Shown here one piece after another: positions 24,378 through 51,391 of a stretch of DNA of 64,000 bases. This stretch comes from Calditrichia bacterium. GTDB lineage: Bacteria; Calditrichota; Calditrichia; RBG-13-44-9; J075. The stretch is from contig JBOEGD010000001.1 in the NCBI GenBank assembly GCA_050633245.1, positions 160,001 through 224,000 on the forward strand, read 5' to 3'. The notes beneath the pieces were generated by a model that searched no databases, was not told the origin of the DNA, and saw nothing but the letters and a program-made list of their open reading frames with translations. Within the stretch, counting starts at the first letter, position 1, and the number at the start of each line of letters is the position of its first letter. The position numbers and the translations under genes are program-made.

Positions 24378-24440
24378 AATCATAATTCATCAATCATAAT
24401 TCATCAATCATAATTCATCAATCATAATTCATCAATCATA
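24378..24440. repeat. 14-bp tandem repeat (AATCATAATTCATC) x4.5
   Basis: Perfect copies at 24378, 24392, 24406 and 24420 plus a half copy. Confidence 0.95.
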
Positions 24441-24450
24441 TCTGGATATC

Positions 24451-33361: not shown

Positions 33362-33399
33362 GATAAAGCATTAATTGAGCTAGAGATTGGGTTTGTAGT

Positions 33400-35892: not shown

Positions 35893-35950
35893 AATAGACT
35901 ACTCGCATTCCTGGTAGTCTTAACACTAAACGGATTTTGCAGGTTGGGAA

Positions 35951-37267
35951 TTGAAGCTGTTAACTCGTACATCCTTACCTCATGCTTCGGAAAAGCTGGA
36001 TACAGTTGTTACGAAGCATAATGGCTGGTATGCCATAGAGGACTTTAAGCTATTTCTCAGACGTGAGCGCGAGCGTGAGCAGCGCACCGGCTGGGTTACG
36101 GCTTTTGTCTCTATTTCATTACCAAACTATCAGAAACGTTCGTCGGCTATTTCTAACCGAAGTTACGATCGCTTTTTGGCTCAATTTATTGGTATCATTG
36201 CCAATAATACACGTGATGCCGATATCAAGGCCATCTCAGATAATTATCGCATTTCATTACTGCTGGTCGATACCTCAATGGATCAGGCTAAGCAATTCAT
36301 TGATAAAATTTCTAAGATTCTGTCAGAGTATTTTAAGGGAGAGAACGTTGATCAAGAGCTTCAACTACTCCAAAATGTTCTCATTGCTTCCTATGCTCTT
36401 AGCTCGATAGATAATGGTGGAGAAGTACGCGGTGACGCTATTTCCCTCAAGCATTTCAGATTTCAGGATGAAGTGGATGGGCCAGCGCCTGAGAACGGCA
36501 AGCTTAATAACGCAACGCCTGCTGATGACAGCTTCTATTTTAATTGGGGAATTTTTAGTGCGTCTACACAGCCGTCTCAATTAGACCCGGCACTGACAGC
36601 AGGCCGGACGAAACAATCTTATCATACAGCCTATCCTTTTCTGAAAAGATGTGTCGACATAATTGGCAGCCTTGTGGGAATTCTTCTCTTTCTACCACTG
36701 ATGGTATTGATTGGAGTCCTTGTTAAATTCACATCTAAAGGACCAATGCTGTTTAAACAAAAACGGATTGGATATCGTGGAGAAATCTTTACCTTCTTGA
36801 AATTCCGCTCTATGCGCACGGATATGGATGATTCGATCCATCGGGAATACGTTACCAAGCTGATTGAAGGAAAGAACGATCAGATAAACAATGGCTCGGG
36901 CGAGGATCCTGTGTATAAAATTACACACGATCCACGAATAACCAAGATTGGTGGCTTTCTAAGGAAAACCAGTCTGGATGAAATACCACAATTTTTCAAT
37001 GTGCTGAGTGGGAAAATGAGCTTGGTTGGTCCACGACCACCGATTCCCTATGAAGTAGACATGTATGAAGACTGGCATTTGCGTCGAATCATGGAAGCAA
37101 AGCCGGGTATTACCGGATTGTGGCAGGTATATGGCCGCAATCAGACAACATTTGATGAGATGGTGCGCCTCGATCTCCAATATATAAAGAAACGATCCAT
37201 CCTTCTGGATCTGAAACTGATTCTACAAACGATTACGGTACTATTTAACCCTGGAGCAGGGTTGTAA
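35951..37267 (+). CDS. Priming polyprenyl-phosphate sugar phosphotransferase with an N-terminal degenerate GGDEF-like domain
   Basis: KRCVDI, KFRSM, DPRIT, RKTSLDEIPQ, MSLVGPRP, KPGITGLWQV. The ~220-aa N-terminal extension carries a GGDEF-fold pattern. Confidence 0.9.
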   Translation: MKLLTRTSLPHASEKLDTVVTKHNGWYAIEDFKLFLRREREREQRTGWVTAFVSISLPNYQKRSSAISNRSYDRFLAQFIGIIANNTRDADIKAISDNYRISLLLVDTSMDQAKQFIDKISKILSEYFKGENVDQELQLLQNVLIASYALSSIDNGGEVRGDAISLKHFRFQDEVDGPAPENGKLNNATPADDSFYFNWGIFSASTQPSQLDPALTAGRTKQSYHTAYPFLKRCVDIIGSLVGILLFLPLMVLIGVLVKFTSKGPMLFKQKRIGYRGEIFTFLKFRSMRTDMDDSIHREYVTKLIEGKNDQINNGSGEDPVYKITHDPRITKIGGFLRKTSLDEIPQFFNVLSGKMSLVGPRPPIPYEVDMYEDWHLRRIMEAKPGITGLWQVYGRNQTTFDEMVRLDLQYIKKRSILLDLKLILQTITVLFNPGAGL

Positions 37268-37282: not shown

Positions 37283-38323
37283 ATGCTTAAAGTTGGAGTC
37301 GTTGGATGTGGGTACTGGGGCCCAAACCTGATTAGAAATTTTCGAAATGCAAAAGACTGCACGGTTGTTATGTGTGCGGACAAGAATGAAGAACGTCTTG
37401 CTAAAATGAAATCACTTTATCCGGAAGTAGAAACGACCACGGATCATCGCGATCTATTGCGCGGAGATATTGCTGCCGTTGCTATCGCAACACCGGTGTG
37501 GACACATTTTCCGCTCGCCAAGGAGTTCCTAAATGCGGGTAAACATGTTTTTATCGAAAAGCCGATTACGCCCTCAGCTAATGAATGCCTGGAATTGATT
37601 GATCTTGCCGAAAAGAAGAATCGCAAGCTAATGGTAGGGCATACGTTTGAGTATACGGCAGCGGTAAATAAAATACGCGAAATTGTGCGCAGTGGAGAGC
37701 TTGGCGATATTATGTATATCAGCAGCACGCGCGTAAACCTGGGGCTTTTTCAGCCGGATATCAATGTGATCTGGGATCTGGCGCCACACGATATTTCCAT
37801 TATTTCATATGTGCTTGGTAAAGATCCGGTCTCGGTGAACGCCCAGGGAAGTGCACACTTCAAGGAGGATATTGAAGATGTGGCAATGACGACGCTGAAT
37901 TACGATAATGGCACAATTGCCTTTCTACATAATAGTTGGTTAGACCCCAACAAAATTCGCAACATGGTCTTTGTCGGAAGTAAGAAGATGCTCGTTTACG
38001 ATGATATCAGTCCAAACGAGAAGATCAAGATTTATGACAAGGGTGTGGATAAACCGAAATACTATGACAGCTTTGCAGAATTTCAGTTTTCCTACCGCTA
38101 TGGTGACATTTATATTCCACGAGTCGAGGAAACAGAAGCCCTTAACAGCGAATGTAATCACTTCCTTAATGCTATTCGAAACGATACCACGCCACGCAGC
38201 GATGGCTATAGTGGACTCAGAGTTGTGCGCATTATTGAAGCCGCATGCAAATCTTTGCGTGAAAACGGATCGGCAGTTCCTTTAGAGCCGCTGGAAAAGC
38301 TTCAAGCAGTAGAGGAGAATTAA
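37283..38323 (+). CDS. Gfo/Idh/MocA oxidoreductase (WbpB/WlbA-like sugar-nucleotide 3-dehydrogenase)
   Basis: GCGYWGPN, ATP, EKP, MVGH, WDLAPHD. Confidence 0.88.
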   Translation: MLKVGVVGCGYWGPNLIRNFRNAKDCTVVMCADKNEERLAKMKSLYPEVETTTDHRDLLRGDIAAVAIATPVWTHFPLAKEFLNAGKHVFIEKPITPSANECLELIDLAEKKNRKLMVGHTFEYTAAVNKIREIVRSGELGDIMYISSTRVNLGLFQPDINVIWDLAPHDISIISYVLGKDPVSVNAQGSAHFKEDIEDVAMTTLNYDNGTIAFLHNSWLDPNKIRNMVFVGSKKMLVYDDISPNEKIKIYDKGVDKPKYYDSFAEFQFSYRYGDIYIPRVEETEALNSECNHFLNAIRNDTTPRSDGYSGLRVVRIIEAACKSLRENGSAVPLEPLEKLQAVEEN

Positions 38324-38324: not shown

Positions 38325-38807
38325 ATGGATTTTCAGAAGATCGCCCCGGACGTTAAGCTGGCGAAAACAGCCAAAGTCTTCAGCTTTGTCAATCTATACG
38401 GTTGTGAGATTGGTGAGAATAGTAAGGTTGGCACTTTCGTAGAGATACAAAAAGGCGCAGTGGTCGGTGCGAATTGCAAAATATCCAGCCATTCATTTAT
38501 CTGCGAAGGCGTAACCATCGAAGACGGGGTTTTTATTGGACACGGCGTGATGTTCATAAATGATGTGTATCCACGCTCTACAACTGAAGACGGTGAATTG
38601 CAGACCGATAGCGATTGGGAATGCGTTCCCACCCGCATATGCGAACGCGCTTCAATTGGTTCAAATGCCACCATTCTCTGTGGCGTTACGGTTGGGAAAA
38701 ATGCAATAGTCGGTGCAGGAAGTGTTGTTACAAAGGATGTGCCCGAGAATACAATCGTTGCCGGAAACCCGGCGCGCGAGATACGACATATTGAGGAGAC
38801 CAAATAG
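38325..38807 (+). CDS. Hexapeptide-repeat N-acetyltransferase (WbpD/WlbB-like)
   Basis: EIQKG, CKISSHSFICEGV, FIND, ASIGSNATIL, VGAGSVVTKDVP, GNPA. Confidence 0.9.
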   Translation: MDFQKIAPDVKLAKTAKVFSFVNLYGCEIGENSKVGTFVEIQKGAVVGANCKISSHSFICEGVTIEDGVFIGHGVMFINDVYPRSTTEDGELQTDSDWECVPTRICERASIGSNATILCGVTVGKNAIVGAGSVVTKDVPENTIVAGNPAREIRHIEETK

Positions 38808-39932
38808 ATGCGAGTACCTTTTCTGGACTTGAAAGCTCAGTACAATAGCATTAACACGGAAGTTCATGAAGCCATTCAAAAAGTCATTGATAAAACTGCT
38901 TTTGCCGGAGGACCGTTTGTAAATGCCTTCGAAGAAGAATTTGCTTCCTATTGCACAACCGAATATGCCATAGGTTGCAGCAGCGGAACCTCTGCTCTTT
39001 GGTTGGCATTGGCAGCCCTTGGCGTTGGCCCGGGAGACGAAGTGATTACTGCGGCAAATACTTTTATTGCTACTGCGGAAGCGATCAGCTTTGCCGGTGC
39101 GACGCCTGTATTTGTCGATATTGAAGAGAACTCGTTTAATCTCGATGCCAGCTTACTTGAACAGGCTGTTACATCGCGCACCAAAGCCGTAATTCCGGTT
39201 CATTTGTTTGGCCAAATGGCAGACATGGATCCGATTATGGAAATTGCCCGTCGACATAATCTGTTTGTTATAGAGGATGCCAGCCAAGCTCACGGTGCAG
39301 AGTACAAAGGAAGGCGTGCCGGTTCCATTGGTGACATTGGCTGTTTTTCTTTCTATCCGGGGAAAAACCTTGGCGCATATGGAGAAGCAGGTGGCATTGT
39401 TACCAATAGTGCTGAGTGGGCTGCTAAAATGAAGATGATAAGAGATCACGGCCAGTCGAAAAAATATCATCATGAAATTATTGGATGGAATGGTCGAATG
39501 GATGGAATTCAGGGGGCAATACTCAGCGTAAAGCTGCGCCATCTGGAAACCTGGACAAATGGACGCCGTGCAAATGCCGGGCTCTATCAGAAATATCTCG
39601 CAGATACCGAGGGCGTGCTGCTGCCAAAGGAGGCTGACCAGGCTCGTCATGTGTATCATATATATGCGATTCGTACATCAAATCGTGATGAGTTGATGAA
39701 AAAACTCAGCGAAAAGGAAATCTATTGCGGTATTCACTACCCGATTCCACTGCATCTGCAAACTGCCTATAGCGATATGGGACATAAGCGCGGCGACTTT
39801 CCGGTTACGGAAGCCTGTGCCGATAGCTATATCTCACTACCCATGTTCGCAGAACTGACCGAAGAACAGATTGCTTTTACTGCAGCAACCATAAAGCAAT
39901 TGATGTCTGAAGAAGTGCCTGTTGGAGTATAG
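38808..39932 (+). CDS. DegT/DnrJ/EryC1/StrS sugar aminotransferase (WbpE/WlbC-like)
   Basis: PFLDL, PVHLFGQ, EDASQAHGA, SFYPGKNLGAYGEAG (PLP Lys), HYPIPLH. Confidence 0.93.
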   Translation: MRVPFLDLKAQYNSINTEVHEAIQKVIDKTAFAGGPFVNAFEEEFASYCTTEYAIGCSSGTSALWLALAALGVGPGDEVITAANTFIATAEAISFAGATPVFVDIEENSFNLDASLLEQAVTSRTKAVIPVHLFGQMADMDPIMEIARRHNLFVIEDASQAHGAEYKGRRAGSIGDIGCFSFYPGKNLGAYGEAGGIVTNSAEWAAKMKMIRDHGQSKKYHHEIIGWNGRMDGIQGAILSVKLRHLETWTNGRRANAGLYQKYLADTEGVLLPKEADQARHVYHIYAIRTSNRDELMKKLSEKEIYCGIHYPIPLHLQTAYSDMGHKRGDFPVTEACADSYISLPMFAELTEEQIAFTAATIKQLMSEEVPVGV

Positions 39933-39976: not shown

Positions 39977-42900
39977 TTGAATGCTATGTACACAGGGAAA
40001 AGTTTGCCGGATCTGCTGGCGGAAGGATTACAGCTGTGGCTAAAGGGACCCGATCAACTCGGGTTTAAGGCGCCGCGCGGCAAACTTTCTCCTGAGCTTA
40101 AAGAAAAGCTTATCGCTGCAAAGCCCGAGCTTTTGGTTACGCTGGAGCGAAACAGGAAATATGCGGCCTGTTCTTTCGCACAACACCGGCTGTGGTTTCT
40201 TGAGCAATTAGATGGCGCCAACCCTGTCTACAATATTCATGCTACCCATATGCTGGAAGGGGAACTGAATGTTGAGGCACTGCAAAACAGCATCACTAAG
40301 GTTCTTCAAAGGCATGATTCCCTGCGCACGGTGTTCGATGCCGCTGACGGTCAGCCGTTTCAGGTAATTGCTGATTCCGTTGAGTTTGAACTACAGCAAA
40401 CCGATTTAACCGCTGTTGAAGAAAGTCTGCGCGACGAGGCGATTGAGCACCATTTGCAAAAAGCCGCGGTAGACACGTTCGATCTACAGCAGGGGCCGTT
40501 GATACGGTTCAGCCTCTATAAACTTTCCGATACCCGCCATGCGTTTATGATTCTTACGCATCACATTATTTTTGATGGTATCTCACTCGGTCTATTGATC
40601 AATGAACTGAGTGCTTCTTATGAAGCACTAATTAGCGGAAAAGAACCGGATTTGCCGCAGCTGCAAAGTAGTTATGCTGATCACGTTAGCTGGCAGCGTC
40701 AGTGGTTTAGCGGCGACGTCGCTCAGAAACAATTGGACTATTGGAAAAATAAGCTGGCCGGTGACCTGGAATCGCTGAATTTGCCATTGGACTATCAGCG
40801 ACCGCAAATTCAGGATACGAGCGGCGATATTCTTTTCTCCGAGATTCCACAAGAGCTATTGAACCGGTTGGATGCTACAGCAAAGCAACACAAGGTCTCG
40901 CTGTTTATGCTGCTCGTTACAGCGGTTAACGTGTTGTTGTCTCGATACTGTAGTCAGGATGATATCTTGCTCGGCCTTCCGGTTGCCAATCGCTCGCGAA
41001 AAAAAGTTGAATCTACTGTCGGCTACTTTGCCAATACCCTGGTTTTGCGCACAAATCTGGCCGACGAACCTACCTTTGCAGAAATGCTACAGCGCGTTCG
41101 TACTGTTTGTTTGGATGCGTATAATCATGAAGATGCTCCATTTGAACAAGTTGTAAGTGCCGTTCAACCGGCTCAGGATCGTAGTCGGACACCACTCTTC
41201 CAGGCAATGGTTAGTTATGATGAAGCAGTTAATCATGCCCGAAAGCTTGGGGAAGTGACAATGGAGCGAATGCCGATAAGAAGCAGGGCAGCACGTACCG
41301 ACCTGACTATTTGGATGAGTAAAGAGATCGATTCTATTCGCTTTGCCTTTGAATATGCCACAAAGCTATTTCGCCCGGAGACTATCAGGCGGATGATGGA
41401 TGGATTCCTTGCGCTCCTTGAAGCTGTGGTATTAGATACTTCTTTGCCGATAAGCATACTTCCGGTAATAACCGCCGAAAATAAACACCAGCTGTTGAGA
41501 GAGTGGAACCAAACGCAAGCCGATGTGCCGACAAATTGCTGTTTCCATCAGCTGTTTGAAGAAAAGGCTAAGGAGAAACCCGGTCAGATAGCTGCTTCAT
41601 TTAATGGCAGTCAAATTAATTATGATGAGCTCAATAAAGCAGCAAATCGACTCGCAAATCTGCTGATAGGCTATGGTATTGAATCTGGCGACCTGCTCGG
41701 TATTTGTATGGATCGCTCCTTGAGCATGCTTATTGGCTTATTGGCTGCCCAAAAGATTGGTGCCACCTACATACCAATGGACCCGTCGTTTCCTGTAGAC
41801 CGCTTGCAATACATGTGCGAAGACGCTGATGTGAAGTGTATTCTTTCCGAGACCGTTTATGGCGAATTAGTAAGTGGTTTTTCCGGTGAACAAGTTTTCT
41901 ATGATCAGCTTGAAGAAGAGCTGATGCAACAGCCCGATCGCAATTTGGATATTCGAATCTCTCCTACGGCAGCGATGTACATGATTTATACTTCTGGTTC
42001 TACAGGAAGACCGAAAGGCGCTTTGCTGCCGCATTCTGCAGTTGTGAACTTTTTGAATTCAATGAGTAAGTCCCCGGGAGTGCAGGCCTCCGATCGGTTA
42101 TTAGCGATCACCACTCTGTCTTTTGATATTGCAGTCTTAGAACTTTACCTGCCGTTGATGCAGGGAGCCTGCGTTGTTATCGCAGATAGCAAGACGGTAA
42201 TGGATCCGCCTTCACTGAAGCTGCTTTTGAGCAACGAGAATATTACGGTAATGCAAGCAACACCCACAACTTGGCGGATGCTCCTGGAAACAAGCTGGAA
42301 TCCTCCACCGCAGTTTAAAGCTTTATGCGGTGGAGAAGCAATGCCACAGTCGTTGTGCAACAGCCTGCTGAAAAAAGGCGTGGAACTGTGGAATATGTAT
42401 GGTCCTACCGAAACATGCGTCTGGTCTTGCGTTCAAAGAATGCAGCCGGAGCATGACCGCATCCTTATTGGCAGGCCGATCGATAATACAACGATTTACA
42501 TTCTCGATAAGCATCTGAATCCCGTTCCGCAGGGAGTTGCCGGTGATCTGTGGATTGGCGGTGTCGGATTGGCGTTGGGCTATCATAACCGCCCTGAACT
42601 GACCGTAGAACGTTTTATTGATAATCCATTCTCAAGCGAGCCTGATTCAAGGCTATATAAAACGGGGGATTTAGCACGCTATGTAGCTGATGAAACGCTC
42701 GAATGTTTAGGCCGCGATGACTTCCAAATAAAGATACGCGGATATCGGATTGAACCCGGTGAAATTGAGGTGGCCTTAAAAAGCTATTCCGGGATTGAAC
42801 AAGCGGTTGTTACGGTAAAGACATTTTCTGAGGATGATGAAAGGCTGGTCGGCTACGTTATTTCAGAGAATCAAATTGAAGAACAACTACAATCGATTCG

Positions 42901-44191
42901 GCAACACATGAAAGAGGCGCTACCGGACTACATGATTCCCGCAGCAATAATGCAGCTCGATACAATTCCACTGACACCGAATGGTAAAATTGACAGAAAT
43001 GCGCTACCACTGCCACAGCCCAAGGTGTCCACTATTCCGATTGAGGTAAAGCGCCCGGTTACCAAATTGGAAGCGAAGCTGATCGCTATTTGGGAATCCG
43101 TTTTGATGGCGAAATCTATTGGAGTGAACGACAATTTTTTTGAGATTGGCGGACATTCATTACTGGCTGCGCGAATCTTTGCTCGAATTGAGAGTGAGTT
43201 GGGTAAAAAATTGCCGCTGGCCACGCTCTTTACCGTACAAACGATTGCCGGACTCGCCGCAGCGATGCAGGAAGAAACGGTCTCTTCAGACTGGTCTTCG
43301 CTGGTGCCAATCCAAACCTCTGGTGACCGTCCACCGTTGTTCTTAATTCACGGTGCCGGTGGGAATGTGCTGCTTTATCGCGACTTAGCTCATTATTTAG
43401 GAGACGATCAGCCCGTTTATGGTCTGCAGGCCCAAGGGCTCGATGGCTCGATGAATTATCTGACTCGTTTTGAAGAGATGGCTGAGCGTTACATCTCCGA
43501 AATCAGAGCTCAACAGCCGAGTGGACCATATTACTTGGGTGGTTATTGTCTTGGCGGCACTCTGGCGTTTGAAGTGGCTAAGCAGCTAACGAGTGTCGGA
43601 GAGCAGGTTGCACTCGTGGCCATGTTCGAGACATTTAACATACATGTGCTGAATAAAAAAGTTCACTCGAAGCCTTACCAGATTCTACACAAAATGCAAA
43701 ATTGGAAGTTTCACTTTGAGAATCTGATGGCACTGGATGCAAAGAGTCGTGCAGACTTCTTCCTCGAAAAAGCACGCGTAGAACGCAGCAGGGCCAAGGC
43801 TTCGCTGGAAGTTGGCGTGAACAATCTTTTTCGAAAGTTAGGCCGTGCCAATCTTGTCGAAGACAAGCCGGCTCCCGTTATTCTCGACCCTATTAATGAT
43901 CGCGCACAATATCACTATGTGCCAACACCATACTCAGGGCGCATAACCCTTTTCCAACCGGTAAAAAGTTTCGCAGGATTCGAGGATGAATTCAGTGGTT
44001 GGAGTGGACTTGCGGAAGGTGGAATTGACCTTCAGGAAATGCCGTTAAGGCCGCGTGGCATGATGGTGGAACCGTTTGTTAAACTTTTAGCTGAAAAACT
44101 AAACGTTTGTATAAGCAAAAGTAGGCGAACCTATTTTGCTCAAGAAACCAATGACCCTAAAAAGACAGGAATGTCTGATGAAGCGAGATAG
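39977..44191 (+). CDS. Single-module non-ribosomal peptide synthetase: TubC-type docking domain, C, A (predicted Gly), T, TE-like
   Basis: SFAQHRLWFL, RHDSLRT, HHIIFDG (C); YTSGSTGRPKG, SFDI, YGPTE, YKTGDLAR, KIRGYRIE, NGKIDR (A); NFFEIGGHSL (T); LFLIHGAGG, GGYCLGG (TE). Confidence 0.95.
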   Translation: MNAMYTGKSLPDLLAEGLQLWLKGPDQLGFKAPRGKLSPELKEKLIAAKPELLVTLERNRKYAACSFAQHRLWFLEQLDGANPVYNIHATHMLEGELNVEALQNSITKVLQRHDSLRTVFDAADGQPFQVIADSVEFELQQTDLTAVEESLRDEAIEHHLQKAAVDTFDLQQGPLIRFSLYKLSDTRHAFMILTHHIIFDGISLGLLINELSASYEALISGKEPDLPQLQSSYADHVSWQRQWFSGDVAQKQLDYWKNKLAGDLESLNLPLDYQRPQIQDTSGDILFSEIPQELLNRLDATAKQHKVSLFMLLVTAVNVLLSRYCSQDDILLGLPVANRSRKKVESTVGYFANTLVLRTNLADEPTFAEMLQRVRTVCLDAYNHEDAPFEQVVSAVQPAQDRSRTPLFQAMVSYDEAVNHARKLGEVTMERMPIRSRAARTDLTIWMSKEIDSIRFAFEYATKLFRPETIRRMMDGFLALLEAVVLDTSLPISILPVITAENKHQLLREWNQTQADVPTNCCFHQLFEEKAKEKPGQIAASFNGSQINYDELNKAANRLANLLIGYGIESGDLLGICMDRSLSMLIGLLAAQKIGATYIPMDPSFPVDRLQYMCEDADVKCILSETVYGELVSGFSGEQVFYDQLEEELMQQPDRNLDIRISPTAAMYMIYTSGSTGRPKGALLPHSAVVNFLNSMSKSPGVQASDRLLAITTLSFDIAVLELYLPLMQGACVVIADSKTVMDPPSLKLLLSNENITVMQATPTTWRMLLETSWNPPPQFKALCGGEAMPQSLCNSLLKKGVELWNMYGPTETCVWSCVQRMQPEHDRILIGRPIDNTTIYILDKHLNPVPQGVAGDLWIGGVGLALGYHNRPELTVERFIDNPFSSEPDSRLYKTGDLARYVADETLECLGRDDFQIKIRGYRIEPGEIEVALKSYSGIEQAVVTVKTFSEDDERLVGYVISENQIEEQLQSIRQHMKEALPDYMIPAAIMQLDTIPLTPNGKIDRNALPLPQPKVSTIPIEVKRPVTKLEAKLIAIWESVLMAKSIGVNDNFFEIGGHSLLAARIFARIESELGKKLPLATLFTVQTIAGLAAAMQEETVSSDWSSLVPIQTSGDRPPLFLIHGAGGNVLLYRDLAHYLGDDQPVYGLQAQGLDGSMNYLTRFEEMAERYISEIRAQQPSGPYYLGGYCLGGTLAFEVAKQLTSVGEQVALVAMFETFNIHVLNKKVHSKPYQILHKMQNWKFHFENLMALDAKSRADFFLEKARVERSRAKASLEVGVNNLFRKLGRANLVEDKPAPVILDPINDRAQYHYVPTPYSGRITLFQPVKSFAGFEDEFSGWSGLAEGGIDLQEMPLRPRGMMVEPFVKLLAEKLNVCISKSRRTYFAQETNDPKKTGMSDEAR

Positions 44192-45140
44192 CAAAGTCAA
44201 AAAGTTGTATTATATGGCACGGCCGGTAATTCCGCGTCGGATTCAGCTGTCTGCCAGAAGAAAGCTAATAGCGCGACAACGCGAGCAGTTCCGCGAAAGC
44301 TGGCCGATTTTGAAAAGCGCATCTAAGCCACCAATGGGTTGGCGGGGATGGCCGGAGGGCAAACGCTTTTCAGTGGTTTTGACGCATGATGTGGAAACAT
44401 ATCGCGGACATGAACGCTGTATGAGGCTAATGGATCTGGAGAAAAAGCTGGGATTTCGTTCCTCATTTAACTTCGTTCCAGAACGGTATGACGTTTCACC
44501 GGATTTACGCAGCCAACTACAGTTGCATGGGTTCGAGGTGGGTGTGCATGGTCTGAACCATGATGGAAAACTGTATCGCAGCAAAAAAACCTTTCGAGAA
44601 CGAGCAAAGAAGATAAATCAATATTTGGAAGAATGGCAGGTCTCGGGATTCCGCTCACCGGCGATGCATCATAATTTGGATTGGATACGGATGTTAAATA
44701 TCGAATATGATTGTTCTACATTCGATACCGATCCGTTTGAACCGCAATCGGATGGTGTTGCAACTATCTTTCCGTTTTGGGTGGAAAGTGCTCGTGACGA
44801 AAAAGGTTTTGTTGAAATGCCTTATACCCTGGCTCAGGACTTTACTCTTTTTGTGCTAATGCAGGAAAAAACGATTCATCTTTGGCAGCAAAAGCTGGAT
44901 TGGATTGCCGAAAACGGCGGAATGGTGCTGATAAATACCCACCCGGATTACATGCGATTTGGTAGCGCCAAGCCGGGAATTGAAGAATATTACGTCGATC
45001 GATATGTCGAATTATTGTCTTATATAAACGAGCGATATGCGGGTGATTTCTGGCATGTTTTACCTTTGGAGATGGCGCGATATTGGTCAGAATACGTAGA
45101 ATCGGATAAAAATACATCCGATATCGGTTTTGTTTTATAA
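44178..45140 (+). CDS. Polysaccharide deacetylase-family (CE4-like) protein overlapping the NRPS stop codon
   Basis: WP.GKRF...LTHDVE, EVGVHG.NH, GFRSP, YDCS, NTHPDY. ATG 44178 overlaps the NRPS end by 14 nt. Confidence 0.82.
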   Translation: MKRDSKVKKLYYMARPVIPRRIQLSARRKLIARQREQFRESWPILKSASKPPMGWRGWPEGKRFSVVLTHDVETYRGHERCMRLMDLEKKLGFRSSFNFVPERYDVSPDLRSQLQLHGFEVGVHGLNHDGKLYRSKKTFRERAKKINQYLEEWQVSGFRSPAMHHNLDWIRMLNIEYDCSTFDTDPFEPQSDGVATIFPFWVESARDEKGFVEMPYTLAQDFTLFVLMQEKTIHLWQQKLDWIAENGGMVLINTHPDYMRFGSAKPGIEEYYVDRYVELLSYINERYAGDFWHVLPLEMARYWSEYVESDKNTSDIGFVL

Positions 45141-45250: not shown

Positions 45251-46513
45251 ATGAAACGCATCGCAATGGTTGTGTATTCCTATTATCCCAGTGACCCGCG
45301 GGTAACGCGGGAGGCGCTTGCCCTTAGCGAGAAAGGTTATGAAGTAGACATTATTTGTCTAAGAGGAGAATCTGAAGCAGCAAAAGAAACGGTTGATGGA
45401 ATTACAGTTTACCGGTTGAATATGAGTCGCCATCGTGGCAATATGCTGCGGTATCTGTGGGCATACTTCTCGTTTCTTATGCGTTCTTTTGTAAAGCTGA
45501 GTCTGAAACAACTTAAGAAAAGCTACGACATTGTTCACGTCCACAACATGCCCGATATCTTGGTCTTATCGGCACTGCTTCCAAAGTTAATGGGAGCCAA
45601 AATTGTTCTGGATCTGCACGATCCCATGCCGGAAGTATTCATCGCAAAGTTTGAGTCTGGCTACAGTCATCCGCTAATTCGCTTATTAATGATGATGGAA
45701 AAGTTTAGTGTCGGTTTCTCGAACCTTGTGCTTACCCCTAACCTGGCATTTCGGGATCTGTTTATCAAACGAGGTTGTCCGGACTGGAAAATTCACATTG
45801 TAATGAATTCTCCTGTCGAGGAAATCTTTGATGAGAAACTTAATGCTTTGGCATCTTCTGCTGAGAGGCTTGATGACGCGCCTGAGCCCTTTGTGGTAAT
45901 GTATCACGGAAGCGTAGTACGACGTCATGGATTAGACGATGCCGTAAAAGCCGTTAAGTTGCTAAAGGACAAAATTCCAATGCTGCACTTTAACGTTTTT
46001 GGCGGGGGCGAGTTTGTAGAGCCTTTCAAAAAGGTCGTGCGTGATGAAGGTGTGTCTTCACATGTTACCTACTTCGGTGGAGTGAGTATTGAGCGTATTG
46101 CCAGAGAAATTGCGCGCGTTGATGTTGGGATTATTCCGAATAAAAGAAGCCCGTTTACCGATATCAACCTGCCAACCCGTATTTTTGAGTATCTATCAAT
46201 GAAAAAGCCGGTTATCGCTTGCCGAACGCACGGGATCCAGGATTATTTTTCCGAGGATGAAATCCACTTCTTTGAGCCAGGAAATATTACAGATCTTGCG
46301 CGAGTGATCGGAGATATTTACGACAACCGTGAGCGAGCTTTGGCCGTTATGCAGCGCGGACAGGCAGTCTATAATTCCTATCGGTGGACAAAGCAGAAAG
46401 ACTACCTGGTACGTTTGGTCGATGCTTTGCTTGCGGATGGAATAAAGCAGATTCAACCGGAGCTTCCGGAAGATATAACTCGTGACGTAGTGGATGCACC
46501 CTTTTCAGGGTAA
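45251..46513 (+). CDS. GT4 glycosyltransferase
   Basis: YP.DPRV.REA, HVHNMPD, LDLHD..PE, YHGS, PTRIFEYLSM. Confidence 0.92.
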   Translation: MKRIAMVVYSYYPSDPRVTREALALSEKGYEVDIICLRGESEAAKETVDGITVYRLNMSRHRGNMLRYLWAYFSFLMRSFVKLSLKQLKKSYDIVHVHNMPDILVLSALLPKLMGAKIVLDLHDPMPEVFIAKFESGYSHPLIRLLMMMEKFSVGFSNLVLTPNLAFRDLFIKRGCPDWKIHIVMNSPVEEIFDEKLNALASSAERLDDAPEPFVVMYHGSVVRRHGLDDAVKAVKLLKDKIPMLHFNVFGGGEFVEPFKKVVRDEGVSSHVTYFGGVSIERIAREIARVDVGIIPNKRSPFTDINLPTRIFEYLSMKKPVIACRTHGIQDYFSEDEIHFFEPGNITDLARVIGDIYDNRERALAVMQRGQAVYNSYRWTKQKDYLVRLVDALLADGIKQIQPELPEDITRDVVDAPFSG

Positions 46514-46558: not shown

Positions 46559-47431
46559 ATGAAGTATACCTTAATTACTCCGGCTCGCAATGAAGAGGCC
46601 TATTTGGAAAAAACGATTCAGACCGTTATTGCACAAACAATCCTGCCGCAGCGCTGGGTAATTGTCAGCGATGGCTCGACGGATCGGACAGATGAAATAG
46701 CCGGTAAATACGCAGCAGAATACGATTTCATTCAGTTGATTGCCAATGATGCAGATGCCGAGCGCAATTTTGGCTCGAAATCGAAAGCTATCGAGTATGG
46801 CTATAAACAACTTTCCGGAATCGATTACGATTACATCGGAAATCTTGATGCCGATGTCGCCTTTGCCCCAAATTATTACGAGCAAATTCTGACGAAATTT
46901 GAAGAAAATCCGAAACTTGGAGTAGCGGGAGGCATTCGATATGATCTGGTCTCGGGTGAAACGTTTGAAAAAGTAATGTGCGCTAAAAATAGTGTCGGTG
47001 GACCATTTCAACTTTTTCGACGGGAATGTTATGAAAAAATCGGCGGTTACTTGCCATTAAAATACGGTGGTGTCGATGCCGTTGCCGAAACGATGGCCAG
47101 GATGCATGGCTGGCAAGTTCAGTCATTTGATGAGTATCGTGTTAACCATTTTCGTCGCACCGGAACTGCCGGGCGCGGCATTATCCACGCGCGATTTCGC
47201 GCCGGAATTAAAGACTACCTGATCGGTTATCATCCCCTTTTTCAACTGCTTCGAGGAACATATCATATGCTGGGCAGCCCGTTTCTAATCGGTGGAGCTG
47301 CATTTCTAAGCGGCTACTTTTGGGCAGCATTGCGTCGCTTAAAACGTCCGGTTTCTGATGAGTTTGTCAGCTACCTGCGTACCGAGCAAATGGCGCGGCT
47401 ACGTGGCAAGAATGCGGCTTTTCGCTTATAG
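46559..47431 (+). CDS. GT2 glycosyltransferase
   Basis: ITPARNE, VSDGSTDRT, NLDAD, FRRECY..IGG, GYHP. Confidence 0.92.
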   Translation: MKYTLITPARNEEAYLEKTIQTVIAQTILPQRWVIVSDGSTDRTDEIAGKYAAEYDFIQLIANDADAERNFGSKSKAIEYGYKQLSGIDYDYIGNLDADVAFAPNYYEQILTKFEENPKLGVAGGIRYDLVSGETFEKVMCAKNSVGGPFQLFRRECYEKIGGYLPLKYGGVDAVAETMARMHGWQVQSFDEYRVNHFRRTGTAGRGIIHARFRAGIKDYLIGYHPLFQLLRGTYHMLGSPFLIGGAAFLSGYFWAALRRLKRPVSDEFVSYLRTEQMARLRGKNAAFRL

Positions 47432-47462
47432 CACTATAAATTAGCATTAATTAGCAGGGAAT

Positions 47463-48926
47463 ATGGATAAAGGGTTTGTAAAATCTTTCTTGAAAGGCTC
47501 CGCCGCCGCTTCTATCGGGCAATTTGCGTCGATTGCCTTTCACTTCCTCAGCATAATGGTGCTTACCAGGAAGATGCCAAAAGAAGAATTTGGTATTTAT
47601 TTACTCATCCTTGTTGTAGTACATCTCCTGAAAATTCTTAGCGGGCTCGGTCTGGATCTGACGCTCGTAAAGTTTATTGCCTCTCGCAAAGAGCATACGA
47701 AGTCTGGTGTACTGGGCACAGTTTTGACGCTTCGTGCGATGCTTCTTGTTCTCTTCGGAGCATTGGTTTATGGGGTTGGGCATTTGCTGACCCCGATGCT
47801 GGATGTGCGGATTAATGACTATCTGATTTATATTCCAATTATTGTCTTTTTTGCCAGCTTTCGGGAATTATTCTTCTTTTTATTTCAGGGGTTAAAGCAA
47901 TTTAAGCATTACGCAATTGTACAGGTGCTGTCTGCACTATTCAAGTTTGGATTGATTTTCTGGGCGTATTGGGTGAATGCTTTATCAGTAAGCAATCTTC
48001 TGATGATCGAAATTATCGCATTTGCCATTTCGCTCGTAGTGCAAATTGCATTGACGCCAATGAAGGAACTTGGCGGCTATTCGTTTAAAATGGAAAGTGT
48101 GCGTGAACTACTGCAATTCGGCTTGCCGTTATATGCGAATAACGTTCTAACCTTCCTGTATGGTCGAGTGAATGTGTTTATGATTGGTGCATTTCTTAAT
48201 CCGGCAAGCATTGCTTCATTTGAAGTCGCGGGAAATATCCCGGGTGGATTTGCTCGAATCTTCAAGTCTTTTATCGTTGTGTATTTTCCCAACCTCGCTA
48301 CGCTTTTTGCTGAGGGAAAAACACGCGATGCAGAGAAGGTTATGAATAAGTCGTTGGTTATTTGTGCGACAGCAGTAGCGTTTCTGACAATGGGCGCGTT
48401 TGCATTTCGCGAGGAAATTATGACGCTAATCTTCTCAGAGAATTATCGGGAAGCCGCACTGGCCTTCGCTTTGTTAATGCTGAGCTTTTTACTTTATGCA
48501 CAGGCATCGATTATGGGCTATTCTTTAGTGTCCGCCGGTTATTCCGGCGTTCCCGTAAAAGCCAATATAATTTCCAGCCTGCTTAACCTGGCATTGAGCA
48601 TTGTTCTAATTCCAAAGTATGGCTATATAGGCGCGGTATATTCGGTGATTGCCATGAACGCTGTTTCGCAGATTGTTTACCTCTACTTTTTAAGGAAAAA
48701 CAATATTAAGGCCGACATTATAAATTACGTGAAGCCGCTTGTATTAGCGGTCGGATTACTGGTGCCGTTTATGATGGCAGGTGAACTTCATATTCTACTT
48801 CGCGCTTTGCTGCCTGTCTGTTATGCCGTAGCTGCTGGTCTTTTACTGCCCGATATTCGCAGTCTTCTTATGATGCTACTAAAACGCGGTAACAAGAGCG
48901 ATATGTCTACGGAGTCGGCGTCATGA
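47463..48926 (+). CDS. wzx: Oligosaccharide flippase
   Basis: About 12-14 hydrophobic segments; EFGIY, L...G.P, LIPKYG.IGA. Confidence 0.88.
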   Translation: MDKGFVKSFLKGSAAASIGQFASIAFHFLSIMVLTRKMPKEEFGIYLLILVVVHLLKILSGLGLDLTLVKFIASRKEHTKSGVLGTVLTLRAMLLVLFGALVYGVGHLLTPMLDVRINDYLIYIPIIVFFASFRELFFFLFQGLKQFKHYAIVQVLSALFKFGLIFWAYWVNALSVSNLLMIEIIAFAISLVVQIALTPMKELGGYSFKMESVRELLQFGLPLYANNVLTFLYGRVNVFMIGAFLNPASIASFEVAGNIPGGFARIFKSFIVVYFPNLATLFAEGKTRDAEKVMNKSLVICATAVAFLTMGAFAFREEIMTLIFSENYREAALAFALLMLSFLLYAQASIMGYSLVSAGYSGVPVKANIISSLLNLALSIVLIPKYGYIGAVYSVIAMNAVSQIVYLYFLRKNNIKADIINYVKPLVLAVGLLVPFMMAGELHILLRALLPVCYAVAAGLLLPDIRSLLMMLLKRGNKSDMSTESAS

Positions 48927-50047
48927 AGATTATTATGGTAGACAGCCTGGTGGATAACGATTATGCGATCTGTCTTTGCGATGCGCTTCAGCAAAGTGGT
49001 GCGGATGTAAGTTTAGTGGTTACCGAAAATCGTCGCGTGCCGGAGAACGTATCGTTCGATTTGCAGTTTATGGCACCATCAAAAGCACAGGGCATTAGCA
49101 AGATAAGCAAGCTCTGGAAATATTTTCGCTATCTGTATCGCCTGCGTAAATTTGCAAAATCGAGCAATGCTGCTGCCATACACTTTCAGTTCTTTCGACG
49201 TGAAAGACTCGATACCTTCTACTTTGTATTACTACGATTGCTGGGCTACAATGTCATTCATACTGCACATAATGTGTTGCCGCATGAGCGCAGCCGTATC
49301 GACTTCTATCTGAAATATCTGGTCTATCTTTCTGCCCGGCAAATTGTTGTGCACTCCGGCTATATTCGGGATAAGTTGCTGGCATCATTCCGGGTTACAC
49401 CGGGGAAGGTGCACATCATTCCGCACGGGAATTTTGATATGTATGTGCCCGAAGAAGAACTTACTGTTGCAGAGGCGCGGTCGAAGATCAATCTTCCGGA
49501 ATCGGCAGCTGTCGTGCTATGTTTTGGTCATATCCGCGAATACAAAGGCATTGACATCCTGATTCAGGCTTTCGATTTAGCAGCACAGGAGGAAAAAGAC
49601 CTGCATCTTATTATTGCCGGAAGTGCCCGGACGCAGGAACTGAAGGAGCGCTACTGCGTGCAGATTGATGCGATTTCTGCGAGTGATCGAGTGCAATATG
49701 TACCGGACTTTATCCCCAATGAAGCGGTTGCCGAATATTTTACTGCGGCGGATATAATTGCTCTACCGTATCGCGCAATAGATCACAGTGGAATTGTACA
49801 TCTGGCGTACTCTTTTGGTAAGCCGATAATTGCTACACGGGTAGGAGATTTTAGTGAGGCCGTTGAAGAGGGCAAGAGTGGCTTTCTCGTTGAGAAAGAA
49901 GATGCGAAGGCTTTAGCAGAAGCATTAAGGTTGGTAGCAGGTAGCAAAGGCAAGCTGGTCGAAATGGGTGAGTATGCCCAAATGCTGAACAAAACAAAAT
50001 ATTCATGGCAGGATATTGCCCGCAAAACCAGAGCAATATATAAATAA
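48923..50047 (+). CDS. GT4 glycosyltransferase
   Basis: TAHNVLPHE, IPHG, FGHIREYKG, LPY....SG, FGKPII; ATGA overlap with wzx. Confidence 0.93.
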   Translation: MKIIMVDSLVDNDYAICLCDALQQSGADVSLVVTENRRVPENVSFDLQFMAPSKAQGISKISKLWKYFRYLYRLRKFAKSSNAAAIHFQFFRRERLDTFYFVLLRLLGYNVIHTAHNVLPHERSRIDFYLKYLVYLSARQIVVHSGYIRDKLLASFRVTPGKVHIIPHGNFDMYVPEEELTVAEARSKINLPESAAVVLCFGHIREYKGIDILIQAFDLAAQEEKDLHLIIAGSARTQELKERYCVQIDAISASDRVQYVPDFIPNEAVAEYFTAADIIALPYRAIDHSGIVHLAYSFGKPIIATRVGDFSEAVEEGKSGFLVEKEDAKALAEALRLVAGSKGKLVEMGEYAQMLNKTKYSWQDIARKTRAIYK

Positions 50048-50083
50048 GTTTTAGGGCGTACCAAGGTATTACGAGAATTAAGC

Positions 50084-51391
50084 ATGAAGACGATCCGACA
50101 CCAAGAGATAATGTTCGTTTATCAACAGCCAACTATTTATTCGCGTGTTGCTGAGTTTGCCTTTTATCTGATGGCAGCCGCCGTCCTTTTTGGAACGACT
50201 ATGCCGTTCCCGGAAACGGAAGGATTTAATGCAGAAAATACCTCGAATATAATGAATCAGATTGTATTCAGTTTCCTCCTTTTATCCGGAACCTTCTCAC
50301 TTATTCCGCTACGTATGGAAGCACTAGCCATTTTGCGTCGTGAGAAGCTGCTTATTATATTGCTGGCCTGGTGCACAATTTCGCTGATGTGGTCGATATA
50401 TCCATTTGTCGGCTTTAAGCGCTTGGTTCTGCTCTTGTCGGTAAGCGTAACTTCGCTTGCTGTATTACTACACTCGCGCAATAGGCCAAACCTACTTTCC
50501 CGCCTGAAATATGTTATTGGCATTTACATTCTGCTAACGATTGTGGTGTGCCTGGTTTTACCTGCTGCCAAAGATCCCAAATTTCATACCTGGCGTGGGT
50601 TTGAGCCGACAAAAAACAATCTGGGACAGGTTGCGCTTGTGTGCATTTTGCTGCTGTTTGTAACCTTTAAGTCTGAACAGGGAAAGCGTTACTTCTCTGG
50701 TGCTTTGCTAGCACTTACCGGAGTTGTATTAATAGGCAGCTGGAGCGTTACTTCAATAGGCGTATTGTTTGGTCTTCTGGGAATTGGTCTGCTGGTATGG
50801 GGAATAGATGTTGCGTTCAACTCTGCACCAATTGCACGGCTACTGAGTATTGTGGCGATTGCAGGCTTTGGTCTGCTGGCCTTGGGAGCGATGCTGTGGG
50901 CCCCGGAATTATTGACAACTATTCCGAAATCATTGGGAAAAGACATTACTTTTTCTGGTCGAACCTATCTATGGGAGTCGATGTGGTTAGAAATTGAACG
51001 CCATTGGATGTTGGGAACGGGTTATGCAGGATTTTGGAACCCGGAGAGTGTTGGGATGGAAGTGCTTCACGAAGAGTTTGTCTGGCTGCCTAACCAGGCA
51101 CACAACGGCTATCTGGATGTGTTGAATGAAATTGGTTTGGTCGGGCTATTTCTCTTTGCTGCGCTAATAATCCGCTACTTGCGAGATGCAGTGGAGCTTG
51201 GAGAAGGATTCTACTGGCAATGGTTTATTGTTGCAATGCTGGTAATGAACCTTCAGGAGAGCACTTTTTTACGTCCGCATAATGCTTTTAATGTTTTTTT
51301 CCTCTTTGCATACTTCTCGTTGTTTGTGGAGCAACATTTTCGCGAAGTGCGGCGTTTTGGTGCAGACGATCAGCTGATATCACCTAACTGA
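50084..51391 (+). CDS. wzy: O-antigen polymerase/ligase family (Wzy_C; ExoQ-like)
   Basis: WRG....KNNLG, T.SGRT.LW, G.GY..FW, AHNGYLD...E.G.VG; many TM helices. Confidence 0.85.
   Translation: MKTIRHQEIMFVYQQPTIYSRVAEFAFYLMAAAVLFGTTMPFPETEGFNAENTSNIMNQIVFSFLLLSGTFSLIPLRMEALAILRREKLLIILLAWCTISLMWSIYPFVGFKRLVLLLSVSVTSLAVLLHSRNRPNLLSRLKYVIGIYILLTIVVCLVLPAAKDPKFHTWRGFEPTKNNLGQVALVCILLLFVTFKSEQGKRYFSGALLALTGVVLIGSWSVTSIGVLFGLLGIGLLVWGIDVAFNSAPIARLLSIVAIAGFGLLALGAMLWAPELLTTIPKSLGKDITFSGRTYLWESMWLEIERHWMLGTGYAGFWNPESVGMEVLHEEFVWLPNQAHNGYLDVLNEIGLVGLFLFAALIIRYLRDAVELGEGFYWQWFIVAMLVMNLQESTFLRPHNAFNVFFLFAYFSLFVEQHFREVRRFGADDQLISPN

Follow-up and report, generated by a model that had tools for sequence, protein, structure and literature searches.

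The stretch of DNA considered here, 64,000 nucleotides (nt) of contig JBOEGD010000001.1 from a Calditrichia bacterium and in the following called the window, carries a gene for a single module of a nonribosomal peptide synthetase (NRPS), which is embedded in a locus for a polysaccharide of the Wzx/Wzy type. An initial annotation had described an intact gene with condensation (C), adenylation (A), carrier (T) and thioesterase (TE) domains between the genes for a sugar aminotransferase and an overlapping deacetylase, within a co-oriented run from wza and wzc to wzx and wzy, and Pfam matches and the translation bear out both the gene and the run, all members of which lie on the + strand (Table 1). 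The reading frame of the NRPS is open from TTG 39977 (1404 amino acids, aa) to the TAG stop at 44189-44191, but ATG 39986 is the likelier start, in agreement with the 1401-aa database record of the same protein (P0003). The deacetylase gene, whose start at ATG 44178 is given by a database protein of 320 aa and 98% identity (P0123), overlaps the NRPS stop by 14 nt (56 nt if its own open frame is counted from the TTG at 44136).

The NRPS frame is uninterrupted, and the core motifs of the C, A and T domains are intact in its translation. A docking domain of the TubC_N type (residues 12-56; PF18563, 37.8 bits versus a cut-off of 26) precedes the C domain (PF00668, residues 62-507, E 2.5e-111), in which the motif HHIIFDG is readable. 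The A domain consists of the AMP-binding part (PF00501, residues 527-870, E 1.1e-81) and AMP-binding_C (PF13193, residues 929-1004) and shows the core motifs YTSGSTGRPKG and GRDDFQIKIRGYRIEPGEIE, with the A10 lysine represented by the K at position 10 of the pocket code. It is followed by the T domain (PF00550, residues 1034-1096, E 3.9e-14), carrying the phosphopantetheine serine in GGHSL, and by the TE (PF00975, residues 1120-1223, E 2e-26). The top match of the whole protein in the Protein Data Bank (PDB) is module 2 of LgrA, likewise specific for glycine and equipped with a normal C domain of the elongation type, and the C domain by itself likewise matches elongation C domains best (LgrA module 2, TycC). 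A misassembly at the NRPS junctions is largely ruled out, because separate contigs of a strain of about 93% identity span both the wbpE-NRPS and the NRPS-deacetylase-GT4 junctions, and the gene order recurs on a metagenome contig (L142, see below). A scan for promoters and terminators between 32300 and 52000 stayed at chance level and is uninformative as to operon structure, with 34 promoter-like sites versus 32.0 +/- 6.7 and 25 terminator-like sites versus 20.2 +/- 4.5 in shuffled sequences.

Table 1. Features of the NRPS gene and of the surrounding polysaccharide locus; positions are those of the window.
Feature	Position	Strand	Basis
NRPS termination module dock-C-A-T-TE	39986..44191	+	Pfam, translation, database self-record P0003 (1401 aa)
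TubC_N-type docking domain	40007..40147	+	PF18563, G000:C1:200007-200147
Condensation domain, HHIIFDG intact	40160..41497	+	Pfam, translation, PDB matches
Adenylation domain, pocket DILQLGMVWK (glycine-type)	41555..42988	+	Pfam, pocket reading
Carrier (T) domain, GGHSL serine	43076..43264	+	PF00550, translation
Thioesterase-fold domain, Cys-nucleophile clade	43334..44131	+	Pfam, alignment, PDB matches
VimE-like deacetylase of CE4 fold	44178..45140	+	Pfam, P0123 start, alignment, AlphaFold/Foldseek
wza (Poly_export), wzc (Wzz/GNVR/AAA_31), initiating polyprenyl-phosphate sugar transferase (Bac_transf)	32750..37267	+	Pfam, NCBIfam
WbpB-like sugar 3-dehydrogenase (GFO_IDH_MocA)	37283..38323	+	Pfam; NCBIfam UDP-GlcNAc 3-dehydrogenase 194.7 bits, below cut-off
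WbpD-like hexapeptide N-acetyltransferase	38325..38807	+	Pfam, NCBIfam
WbpE-like DegT aminotransferase	38808..39932	+	Pfam, NCBIfam
GT4 glycosyltransferase after the deacetylase, as in most related loci	45251..46513	+	Pfam, NCBIfam
GT2, wzx (Polysacc_synt), GT4, Wzy_C-family polymerase or ligase	46559..51391	+	Pfam
Upstream sugar genes of the same super-locus	12681..25464	+	Pfam, NCBIfam
AsnB-like amidotransferase	21628-23502	+	TIGR03108, 570 bits, below cut-off
Second CE4 deacetylase	24451-25464	+	PF01522, 5e-23, clearer match than the VimE-like one

Pocket code and conservation of the module

The specificity of the A domain was judged from ten pocket residues, placed via the motif positions in GrsA numbering rather than mapped by a tool. 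They read DILQLGMVWK, in line with the approximate reading by eye in the initial annotation, and fit the reference code for glycine, DILQLG(L/M)(I/V)WK. The same ten residues are present in two orthologues of the protein (P0009 and P0010), in an A-T-TE fragment of another genome (G001:C841) and in the second A domain of a hybrid protein (G015:C2), i.e., in four modules that are either orthologous or linked to exopolysaccharide (EPS) loci, and the code with I or V at position 8 recurs in three further modules of the genome to which the window belongs, namely in a hybrid protein on contig C18, on contig C38, and in the last module on contig C19. The two best PDB matches of the pocket segment are 5U89 and AB3403, the pocket of the latter sharing Q, L, G, V, and W with that of the window protein (5 of 6 aligned code residues) and differing at position 322 only (V versus M). 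AB3403 was crystallised with AMP and glycine, as stated in a review. The glycine specificity suggested initially is supported by these comparisons, and the A domain is predicted from its pocket code to activate glycine.

A search of 185,579 species genomes for orthologues yielded none above 44% identity, the 80 loci kept being generic NRPSs of 34-44%, and no full-length match above 42% was obtained in a family search of 16 genomes. The family- and order-level searches with the whole protein were dominated by unrelated NRPS modules, and their useful yield consisted of paralogous pieces and the fragment G001:C841. Among the 120 matches listed from a search of 5.8 billion proteins, only P0009 (1389 aa, 56-57% identical) and P0010 (1395 aa, 58%) are close proteins of the same architecture. 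The gene for P0009 lies on a metagenome contig (L142) which is syntenic to the window gene for gene, in the order epimerase-wza-wzc-phosphoglycosyltransferase-wbpB-wbpD-wbpE-NRPS-deacetylase-GT4-GT2-wzx-GT4-wzy, with an intact NRPS frame and neighbouring genes 64-92% identical to those of the window. Synonymous sites are saturated between the two loci, and the comparison is confined to nonsynonymous divergence (dN) and the identity of single domains, which amounts to 77% for the dock, 78% for the TE core, 72% for the T domain, 59% for the A core, and 45% for the C domain (dN 0.53). The HHxxxDG motif of the C domain is kept in all three orthologues (HHIIFDG in the window, HHIVSDG in P0009 and P0010).

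These data bear on the possibility that the NRPS gene represents a selfish or accidental insertion, which destroyed the transferase gene vimA expected at this place (see below) and plays no role in either peptide or sugar synthesis. The rarity of the gene, with no orthologue above 44% in the species genomes and just two of 57-58% among the 120 proteins listed, would agree with such an event. However, the frame has stayed intact at 1389-1401 aa across diverged lineages with all catalytic motifs retained, dN is well under the saturated synonymous divergence, and no mobile-element genes were seen among the annotated neighbours, which renders an insertion of this kind very improbable.

The deacetylase and the gene slot preceding it

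The open frame overlapping the NRPS stop (44136..45140) shows only weak family matches (Polysacc_deac_1, E 1.5e-5; TIGR03006, E 2e-5). The AlphaFold model of its product (mean predicted local distance difference test score, 89.1) has a CE4 fold according to Foldseek, with 3RXZ as best match (E 1e-11; template modelling scores 0.58-0.66) and PuuE, HP0310, and ArnD as further ones, the last of which acts on a lipid-linked amino sugar. In an alignment of 36 sequences, residues H70, D71, H124, H128, D129, and H255 are invariant; the enzyme carries THD at the place where CE4 enzymes have a DD motif. The family is huge, as 7997 of the 8000 scored candidates are found at E <= 0.001, and the best 120 matches are 57-98% identical, mostly 303-362 aa long, and mostly devoid of a Pfam match. 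They (P0123-P0242) remain about 60% identical across records from Deltaproteobacteria, Rhodothermales, and a Thermoplasmata archaeon, an unusual degree of conservation, and a protein cluster database yielded for the deacetylase solely "hypothetical protein" clusters from several phyla. A spurious frame, as might be suspected from the weak Pfam score, was rejected because of this very large cross-phylum family of about 60% identity and the CE4-folded model.

Orthologues of the deacetylase (52-64% identity) were used to compare 16 related loci in 14 other genomes of the phylum, made up of 11 loci from the family, where 9 of the 15 other genomes contain the gene, and of 5 further genomes from a phylum sample, in which 13 of the 56 genomes, including the own one, gave a match. 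The gene typically follows wbpB-(wbpD)-wbpE and precedes a GT4 gene, and the position directly upstream of it is taken by a gene for a FemAB-like protein in 10 of the 16 loci; in five further ones such a gene occurs elsewhere in the fetched stretch, and in one there is none. The FemAB-like proteins are 343-375 aa long and combine Acetyltransf_6 (PF13480) with FemAB (PF02388); seven of the ten in the slot were confirmed by Pfam and the others assigned by tblastn at 36-41% identity. Two of these proteins were scanned against TIGR03019 and matched with E about 1e-40, below the curated cut-off. The statement of the initial annotation that decorations of this type are normally attached by FemAB or GNAT enzymes is well reflected here, the relatives carrying exactly FemAB-like genes. 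By contrast, a FemAB-like gene is absent from both NRPS-bearing loci, i.e., from the 64 kb of the window and the 24 kb of L142; the only match in the own genome, with an identity of 24%, is situated at C1:141647-142636, at a distance of 58 kb upstream from the NRPS gene.

The remaining loci show a variety of genes in the slot. A stand-alone T-TE gene occupies it in L129 (on G015:C55), with the FemAB-like gene one position further upstream, and a WbpB-like gene in L131, with the FemAB-like match just past it. L132 (G009; L132:10475-16282) has an AMP-binding enzyme, either amino-acid-adenylating or acyl-CoA-ligase-like (TIGR03098-like at 368 bits); two acyl-CoA dehydrogenases and a methyltransferase are encoded ahead of it, and the FemAB-like gene is 4 kb farther away. 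An ATP-grasp protein and a phosphatidylserine-decarboxylase-like protein are encoded in L123 (G006; L123:7631-9620), whereas in L148 (G026; L148:1818-3380) wbpE itself adjoins the deacetylase gene and no FemAB-like match is present in 14 kb; L126 ends with a contig edge directly upstream of the deacetylase. As far as can be judged from the predicted gene products, this variation suggests that differing N-acyl groups are attached to the same sugar.

A precedent for this arrangement is provided by the Wbp/Vim pathway of Porphyromonas gingivalis and Tannerella forsythia. According to the published account, the enzymes WbpA/B/E/D make a di-N-acetyl uronic acid, from which the CE4 enzyme VimE is proposed to remove the 2-N-acetyl group, and VimA, which matches TIGR03019, attaches to the amine a serine in P. 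gingivalis and a glycine in T. forsythia; with T. forsythia vimA swapped in, the residue became glycine (PMC7468200). The same source describes an AsnB-like enzyme, WbpS, as making the uronamide, type IX secretion (T9SS) cargo as being bonded to the free amine of the amino acid, and vimA-vimE pairs as neighbours of full wbp sets in further bacteria (PMC7468200). As far as this account goes, the window resembles the Wbp/Vim loci in its genes of predicted WbpB/D/E type, the CE4 deacetylase with a GT4 gene after it and an AsnB-like amidotransferase nearby, the product expected from those loci being a 2-N-aminoacyl-3-N-acetyl uronic sugar with glycine in the case of T. forsythia. It differs from them by the absence of the VimA-type, presumably aminoacyl-tRNA-dependent transferase, in place of which the ATP-dependent C-A-T-TE protein is found, by the presence of the export genes wza and wzc, and in that the glycine may be N-acylated rather than free. 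We designate the deacetylase as VimE-like on the strength of shared family matches and gene order. From the comparison of the loci, it would appear that the NRPS module acts on the sugar, whatever the N-substituent may be, and has displaced VimA, a reading to which we assign a probability of about one half.

Other assembly lines, putative docking partner, and thioesterase

The initial statement that no further NRPS genes are present holds for the window, since PF00668 is matched only once on its contig (C1), but not for the genome, in which NRPS or polyketide synthase genes are found on the contigs C18, C19, C38, and C48. Note that the genome is 97% complete in 59 contigs and broken at NRPS repeats, and the counts of docks and TEs given below rest on this incomplete assembly. 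Contig C18 (G000:C18:239735-252082) encodes a 3617-aa protein of the order A-ACP-sulfotransferase-KS-AT-ACP-aminotransferase-C-A-T (ACP, acyl carrier protein; KS, ketosynthase; AT, acyltransferase), followed by a dock-C frame running off the contig; the sulfotransferase domain of this hybrid stands between the first carrier and the KS. Contig C38 (1.3 kb), which may be a collapsed repeat used twice, contains an A domain only, 63% identical to that of the window, and contig C48 contains the end of a T-ending protein and then another dock-C. On contig C19 (1-24450), the end of a T-ending protein is followed by two alpha/beta hydrolases and tailoring genes, and a second line, C-A-T-C-A-T-(C/E)-C-A-T, ahead of which acyl-CoA dehydrogenase, AMP-ligase, and TonB receptor genes are located, lacks a TE.

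TubC_N docks are found at three places of the genome only (the end of C18, C48, and the window), and three T-ending proteins share similar acidic tails of the form E(G/D)x(L/I). The tails ...NLVEGSL and ...EMEEGMI are each directly followed by a dock protein, and the tail ...EITEDAI, which belongs to the C-A-T protein forming the last module on C19, has neither an adjacent dock nor a TE. A complex prediction for the window dock (60 aa) and the last 40 residues of this C19 protein gave a score of 0.01 (mark, 0.34), which was used neither for nor against binding. Among the five matches to PF00975, that of the window is the sole NRPS-fused one in the assembled genome; the two others above the curated cut-off were rejected as NRPS TEs, being generic alpha/beta hydrolases, and two below it (C16:199143, C2:2851) were left out of this assessment. 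The only Sfp-type phosphopantetheinyl transferase (PPTase; PF01648) is encoded beside the C18 hybrid, outside the window locus (C18:239261-239581). Because of the dock, the elongation-type C domain, the sole NRPS-fused TE, the unpaired C19 tail, and the location of the PPTase, the window module probably represents the trans-encoded last module of a larger line, either that of C19 or that of C18.

The TE itself is of an unusual type, with a Cys in the nucleophile motif (GYCLG), a Glu replacing the usual Asp, and an Arg in the canonical His column, the lid His (FHF) being conserved. The domain belongs to the PF00975 fold family, but a Ser-Asp-His triad is not found at the canonical TE positions. 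The Cys-TE clade to which it belongs comprises as many as 2596 representative clusters at E <= 1e-30. In an alignment of its 149 best representatives with P0009 and P0010, nearly all rows show Cys at the nucleophile column, and the commonest patterns combine a conserved lid His with a variable canonical His column; as sorted by length, 42 rows have the size of C-A-T-TE, 33 that of A-T-TE, and 15 that of T-TE proteins, while 9 correspond to a TE only, 12 measure 520-700 aa, and 40 are multi-module proteins. ObiF provides a published case of a functional Cys-TE. The best NCBIfam rows include the Pks13 TE (71.6 bits), which offloads to a sugar and was counted in favour of a sugar as acceptor, but this likeness is generic among TE domains, as EntF scores equally. 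As judged from these sequences, the TE type is not peculiar to sugar loci, and its acceptor is unreadable from them.

When the TE alone was searched at the level of the order, 7 of 37 genomes, including the own one, contained matches at E <= 1e-25, and the three closest of these matches all lie in EPS loci. The first is the A-T-TE fragment G001:C841, which is 53-59% identical to the window protein and is followed by a GT2 gene 63% identical to that of the window. The second is the stand-alone T-TE on G015:C55, flanked by a FemAB-like gene (upstream) and a deacetylase gene, and the third a gene on G015:C2 for a 3489-aa protein (A-ACP-KS-AT-ACP-aminotransferase-C-A(Gly)-T-TE), which comes after the wzy gene of one full Wbp/FemAB/deacetylase locus and ahead of another wza-wzc-wzy set. 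The remaining four matches (32-38% identity) are multi-module NRPSs, with no EPS genes seen on their contigs. In a quick TE tree with support values from SH-aLRT (an approximate likelihood ratio test), the window protein, P0009, and P0010 form a clade with a support of 100, a clade of ten rows adding G001:C841 and the G015:C2 TE has a support of 82, and the T-TE of G015:C55 branches elsewhere on a long branch; the monophyly of the EPS-linked TEs is not established by this tree. The G015:C2 hybrid (L135/L127, G015:C2:10054-20524) is 42-47% identical to most of the C18 hybrid, which is TE-less, and would be predicted from its domains to make a beta-amino-fatty-acyl-glycine.

As the sole NRPS-fused TE of a genome with a TE-less line elsewhere, the window module could simply release a free lipopeptide. 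According to this explanation, it would be the last module of the C19 or C18 line, its TE would set free a secreted (lipo)peptide ending in glycine, its place in the operon would reflect either co-regulation (e.g., of a surfactant with the matrix) or accident, and the deacetylase would act on the sugar independently. This would agree with the TubC_N dock and the elongation-type C domain, with the scarcity of docks combined with the C19 tail lacking both dock and TE, with the window TE as the sole NRPS-fused one among five PF00975 matches, and with the single Sfp-type PPTase beside the C18 hybrid; moreover, paralogous pieces from the same genome are as close to the window module as its orthologue (58% for the C domain, 63% for the A domain), modules of both other lines share its glycine code, and its TE clade is widespread in ordinary NRPSs. 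Left unexplained, however, would be the placement exactly in the VimA slot, the overlap with the deacetylase gene, the fact that both loci with the NRPS have lost the FemAB-like gene, and the TE relatives at differing positions of EPS loci in two other genera, and the position of the NRPS gene has been kept despite saturated synonymous sites. In addition, a further TE may be hidden among the unassembled, fragmented NRPS repeats, which weakens the argument from a one-to-one pairing of lines and TEs. We regard the release of a free product, the chief rival of the sugar-acting reading, as possible but doubtful.

Proposed sugar modification and its implications

If the module acts on the sugar instead, the following reactions would be conceivable, each chemical step of which we infer from the predicted functions of the gene products. 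The WbpA/B/E/D-like enzymes would supply a 2,3-diacetamido uronic sugar, and the VimE-like deacetylase, translationally coupled to the NRPS, would free one of its amines, by analogy that at C-2. The A domain would adenylate glycine and load it onto the T domain, after activation of the latter by the Sfp-type PPTase from beside the other NRPS cluster, and the glycyl thioester would be handed over to the sugar amine, with formation of an amide, by the Cys-type TE or, with lower likelihood, by the C domain. Because the conserved dock and the elongation-type C domain are kept, the glycine would probably be N-acylated beforehand, with a donor chain coming in trans from the TE-less three-module line of C19 or from the C18 hybrid line, and the unit transferred would then be acyl- or peptidyl-glycyl rather than bare glycyl. 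Formally, the C domain would make the bond made by the sortase in the Wbp/Vim systems, and the TE that made by VimA. By analogy, the Wbp/Vim precedent suggests that the acceptor is a monosaccharide linked to a nucleotide or a lipid and not a finished polymer.

The connection with the sugar pathway is drawn from position, gene overlap, synteny, the complementary occurrence of FemAB-like and NRPS genes, and the TE relatives in EPS loci, while the module is connected with an assembly line by its dock and C domain, by the orphan tail on C19, and by the PPTase; the two sets of evidence point apart but are compatible with each other. Gene content and order, the overlap, the intact state of the domains, their pocket code, synteny, and the complementary occurrence of FemAB-like and NRPS genes are results of the sequence analysis itself. 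Both sets would be accommodated if a lipopeptide or peptide from the TE-less line were docked over to the window module and grafted via its C-terminal glycine onto the 2-amino group of the Wbp-type uronic sugar, with the Cys-TE serving as amide-forming transferase. In this specific form, the proposal is put forward with considerable reservation, as a tentative and on balance rather unlikely variant.

A simpler variant would be the attachment of bare glycine to the sugar amine as an equivalent of T. forsythia VimA, with the free amine serving as attachment point (e.g., for T9SS cargo) and dock and C domain being idle leftovers of ancestry. The likelihood given to it was counted apart from the figure for the sugar-acting module as such. 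It would fit the glycine code and the VimA-slot position, and the C domain is the least conserved part of the protein (45% identity, dN 0.53). Furthermore, the cargo of the published Wbp/Vim systems is described as bound to the free amine of the amino acid, and the genome, which contains at least 150 Por_Secre_tail (T9SS C-terminal) domains and no match to the exosortase EpsH (PF09721) at 97% completeness, leans heavily on type IX secretion, as judged from these domain counts. In contrast, the dock belongs to the parts with the highest conservation (77%), and the C domain, being far from decaying neutrally, has retained HHxxxDG in all three orthologues. Moreover, 6 of the 15 other family genomes, the 99%-complete G010 among them, have no member of the deacetylase family, indicating that the sugar is no universal requirement for T9SS in this group. 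Transfer of bare glycine is regarded as quite unlikely.

Several points speak against an action of the module on the sugar in general. Dock and C domain would be needless for a bare glycyl transfer and point to an upstream NRPS partner, with the possible release of a free lipopeptide as discussed above. The relation of the deacetylase and the FemAB-like proteins to VimE and VimA of P. gingivalis is an analogy drawn from family matches and gene order, and the large Cys-TE clade consists mostly of ordinary NRPS proteins, as judged from the proteins themselves. A recurrence of the NRPS arrangement across phyla is not shown, given the lack of orthologues above 44% identity in the 185,579 species genomes. 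FemAB-like and NRPS genes are not strictly exclusive, as G015:C2 has both and L148 neither, and the complementary distribution may reflect few independent events among sampled genomes which are kin. Finally, the pathway of AB3403 is called uncharacterised in the review, which mentions no link to polysaccharides. Nevertheless, the coupling of the NRPS to the polysaccharide pathway claimed in the initial annotation has gained support from the synteny with L142, the FemAB slot, and the TE relatives in EPS loci of two genera. The transfer of a glycyl or N-acyl-glycyl unit to the sugar, also suggested there, agrees with the glycine code and the coupling to the sugar genes, but the comparison argues against a self-contained module, and against the polymer among the acceptors named there, and a cross-linkable capsule is pure speculation. 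The TubC_N dock, the elongation type of the C domain, the sole NRPS-fused TE, the unpaired C19 tail, and the Wbp/Vim precedent were not part of that annotation.

Among known systems, AB3403 of Acinetobacter baumannii (ABBFA_003403; PDB 4ZXH/4ZXI) resembles the window protein in architecture, as it is likewise a single-protein C-A-T-TE (match E 1.5e-186) with a Cys nucleophile in its TE (GWCFG; first 102 aligned residues compared). According to the review, a stand-alone A domain and carrier serve its C domain in trans; unlike in the window protein, no TubC_N dock is reported there. The EPS families associated with XrtA/PEP-CTERM systems (TIGR03019, TIGR03006, TIGR03098, TIGR03108) are matched by the slot genes of the relatives and the AsnB-like gene of the window and share the theme of an activating enzyme beside a deacetylase in EPS loci, but all scores are below the curated cut-offs, and no exosortase was found in the genome. 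The TE of mycobacterial Pks13, which transfers its acyl chain to trehalose, i.e., to a sugar rather than to water, ranks high in both NCBIfam and the PDB as a match to the N-terminal half of the window TE, from which it differs by its Ser nucleophile and by the formation of an ester rather than an amide. The Dlt (DltA/DltC) and FemXAB systems also transfer amino acids onto polymers or precursors of the cell envelope, and DltA is a relative of the A domain (3DHV is among the PDB matches). Dlt systems have no C or TE domain and make D-alanine esters outside the membrane, and Fem enzymes use aminoacyl-tRNA. For carenaemin of Collimonas, the hypothesis has been put forward that a PKS/NRPS peptide is linked to, and exported with, a lipid-linked oligosaccharide from a Wzy-dependent pathway (PMC8313283); as far as described, two separate loci are involved, the sugar operon contains no NRPS, and the peptide-sugar linkage is purely hypothetical. 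Word searches in open-access full texts, excluding supplements, retrieved no paper placing an NRPS in a Wbp/Vim or wzx/wzy sugar-modification role. The logic of the Wbp/Vim pathway and single-module glycine C-A-T-TE proteins are already known, while an NRPS in the VimA position of a Wbp/Vim-type locus appears to be new within the scope of these searches, with the carenaemin proposal as the nearest published idea.

The polysaccharide genes around the NRPS extend farther upstream into a super-locus, comprising in this order a UDP-GlcNAc 2-epimerase, a heparinase II/III-like protein (13803-16163), two GT4 enzymes, a nucleotide-sugar dehydrogenase (18938-20251), and a GT2 enzyme. A further block (21628-26499) encodes the AsnB-like amidotransferase, a frame without family match, the second CE4 deacetylase, and an LPG_synthase_TM protein, and carAB (26747-31045) separate the upstream sugar genes from the main locus. 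The members of the WbpA/B/D/E set fit their Pfam families (nucleotide-sugar dehydrogenase, GFO_IDH_MocA, hexapeptide transferase, DegT), and the NCBIfam match to UDP-GlcNAc 3-dehydrogenase stays below its cut-off; none of them received an equivalog-level assignment. Directly after wzy, a right-handed beta-helix protein is encoded on the opposite strand (51399-52742), which may modify or degrade the locus's own polysaccharide together with the heparinase-like protein. Two large surface-type proteins are encoded at 1605-6779 and 9479-12262 (- strand), one with PKD, BACON, and CarboxypepD_reg domains and the other with G8, a CEMIP beta-helix, and a weak CHU_C T9SS signal. The region 1-18 kb before the window (G000:C1:141647-159058) contains two ATP-grasp matches in addition to the distant FemAB-like one (24%) and may represent another sugar-modification locus.

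Amino-acylated uronic sugars of the Wbp/Vim type anchor T9SS cargo on surface glycans, and a corresponding anchoring has been proposed for the substrates of exosortases and rhombosortases. If an NRPS can replace the tRNA-dependent VimA in such a pathway, NRPS termination domains can offload their products to sugar amines of primary cell-envelope pathways, and surface polysaccharides may bear nonribosomal acyl or peptidyl groups which are missed by standard glycan analysis. Orphan single-module C-A-T-TE proteins with Cys-type TEs, a large clade with AB3403, of known structure but unassigned function, among its members, would then gain a testable class of acceptors, and the locus offers a compact test system, consisting of WbpA/B/E/D, the deacetylase, and one NRPS protein. 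If the grafting of peptides should turn out to be true, it would parallel, by means of an assembly line, the sortase-type linkage by which proteins are attached to linking sugars of this kind, and would give rise to a lipopeptide-anchored or peptide-decorated surface glycan.

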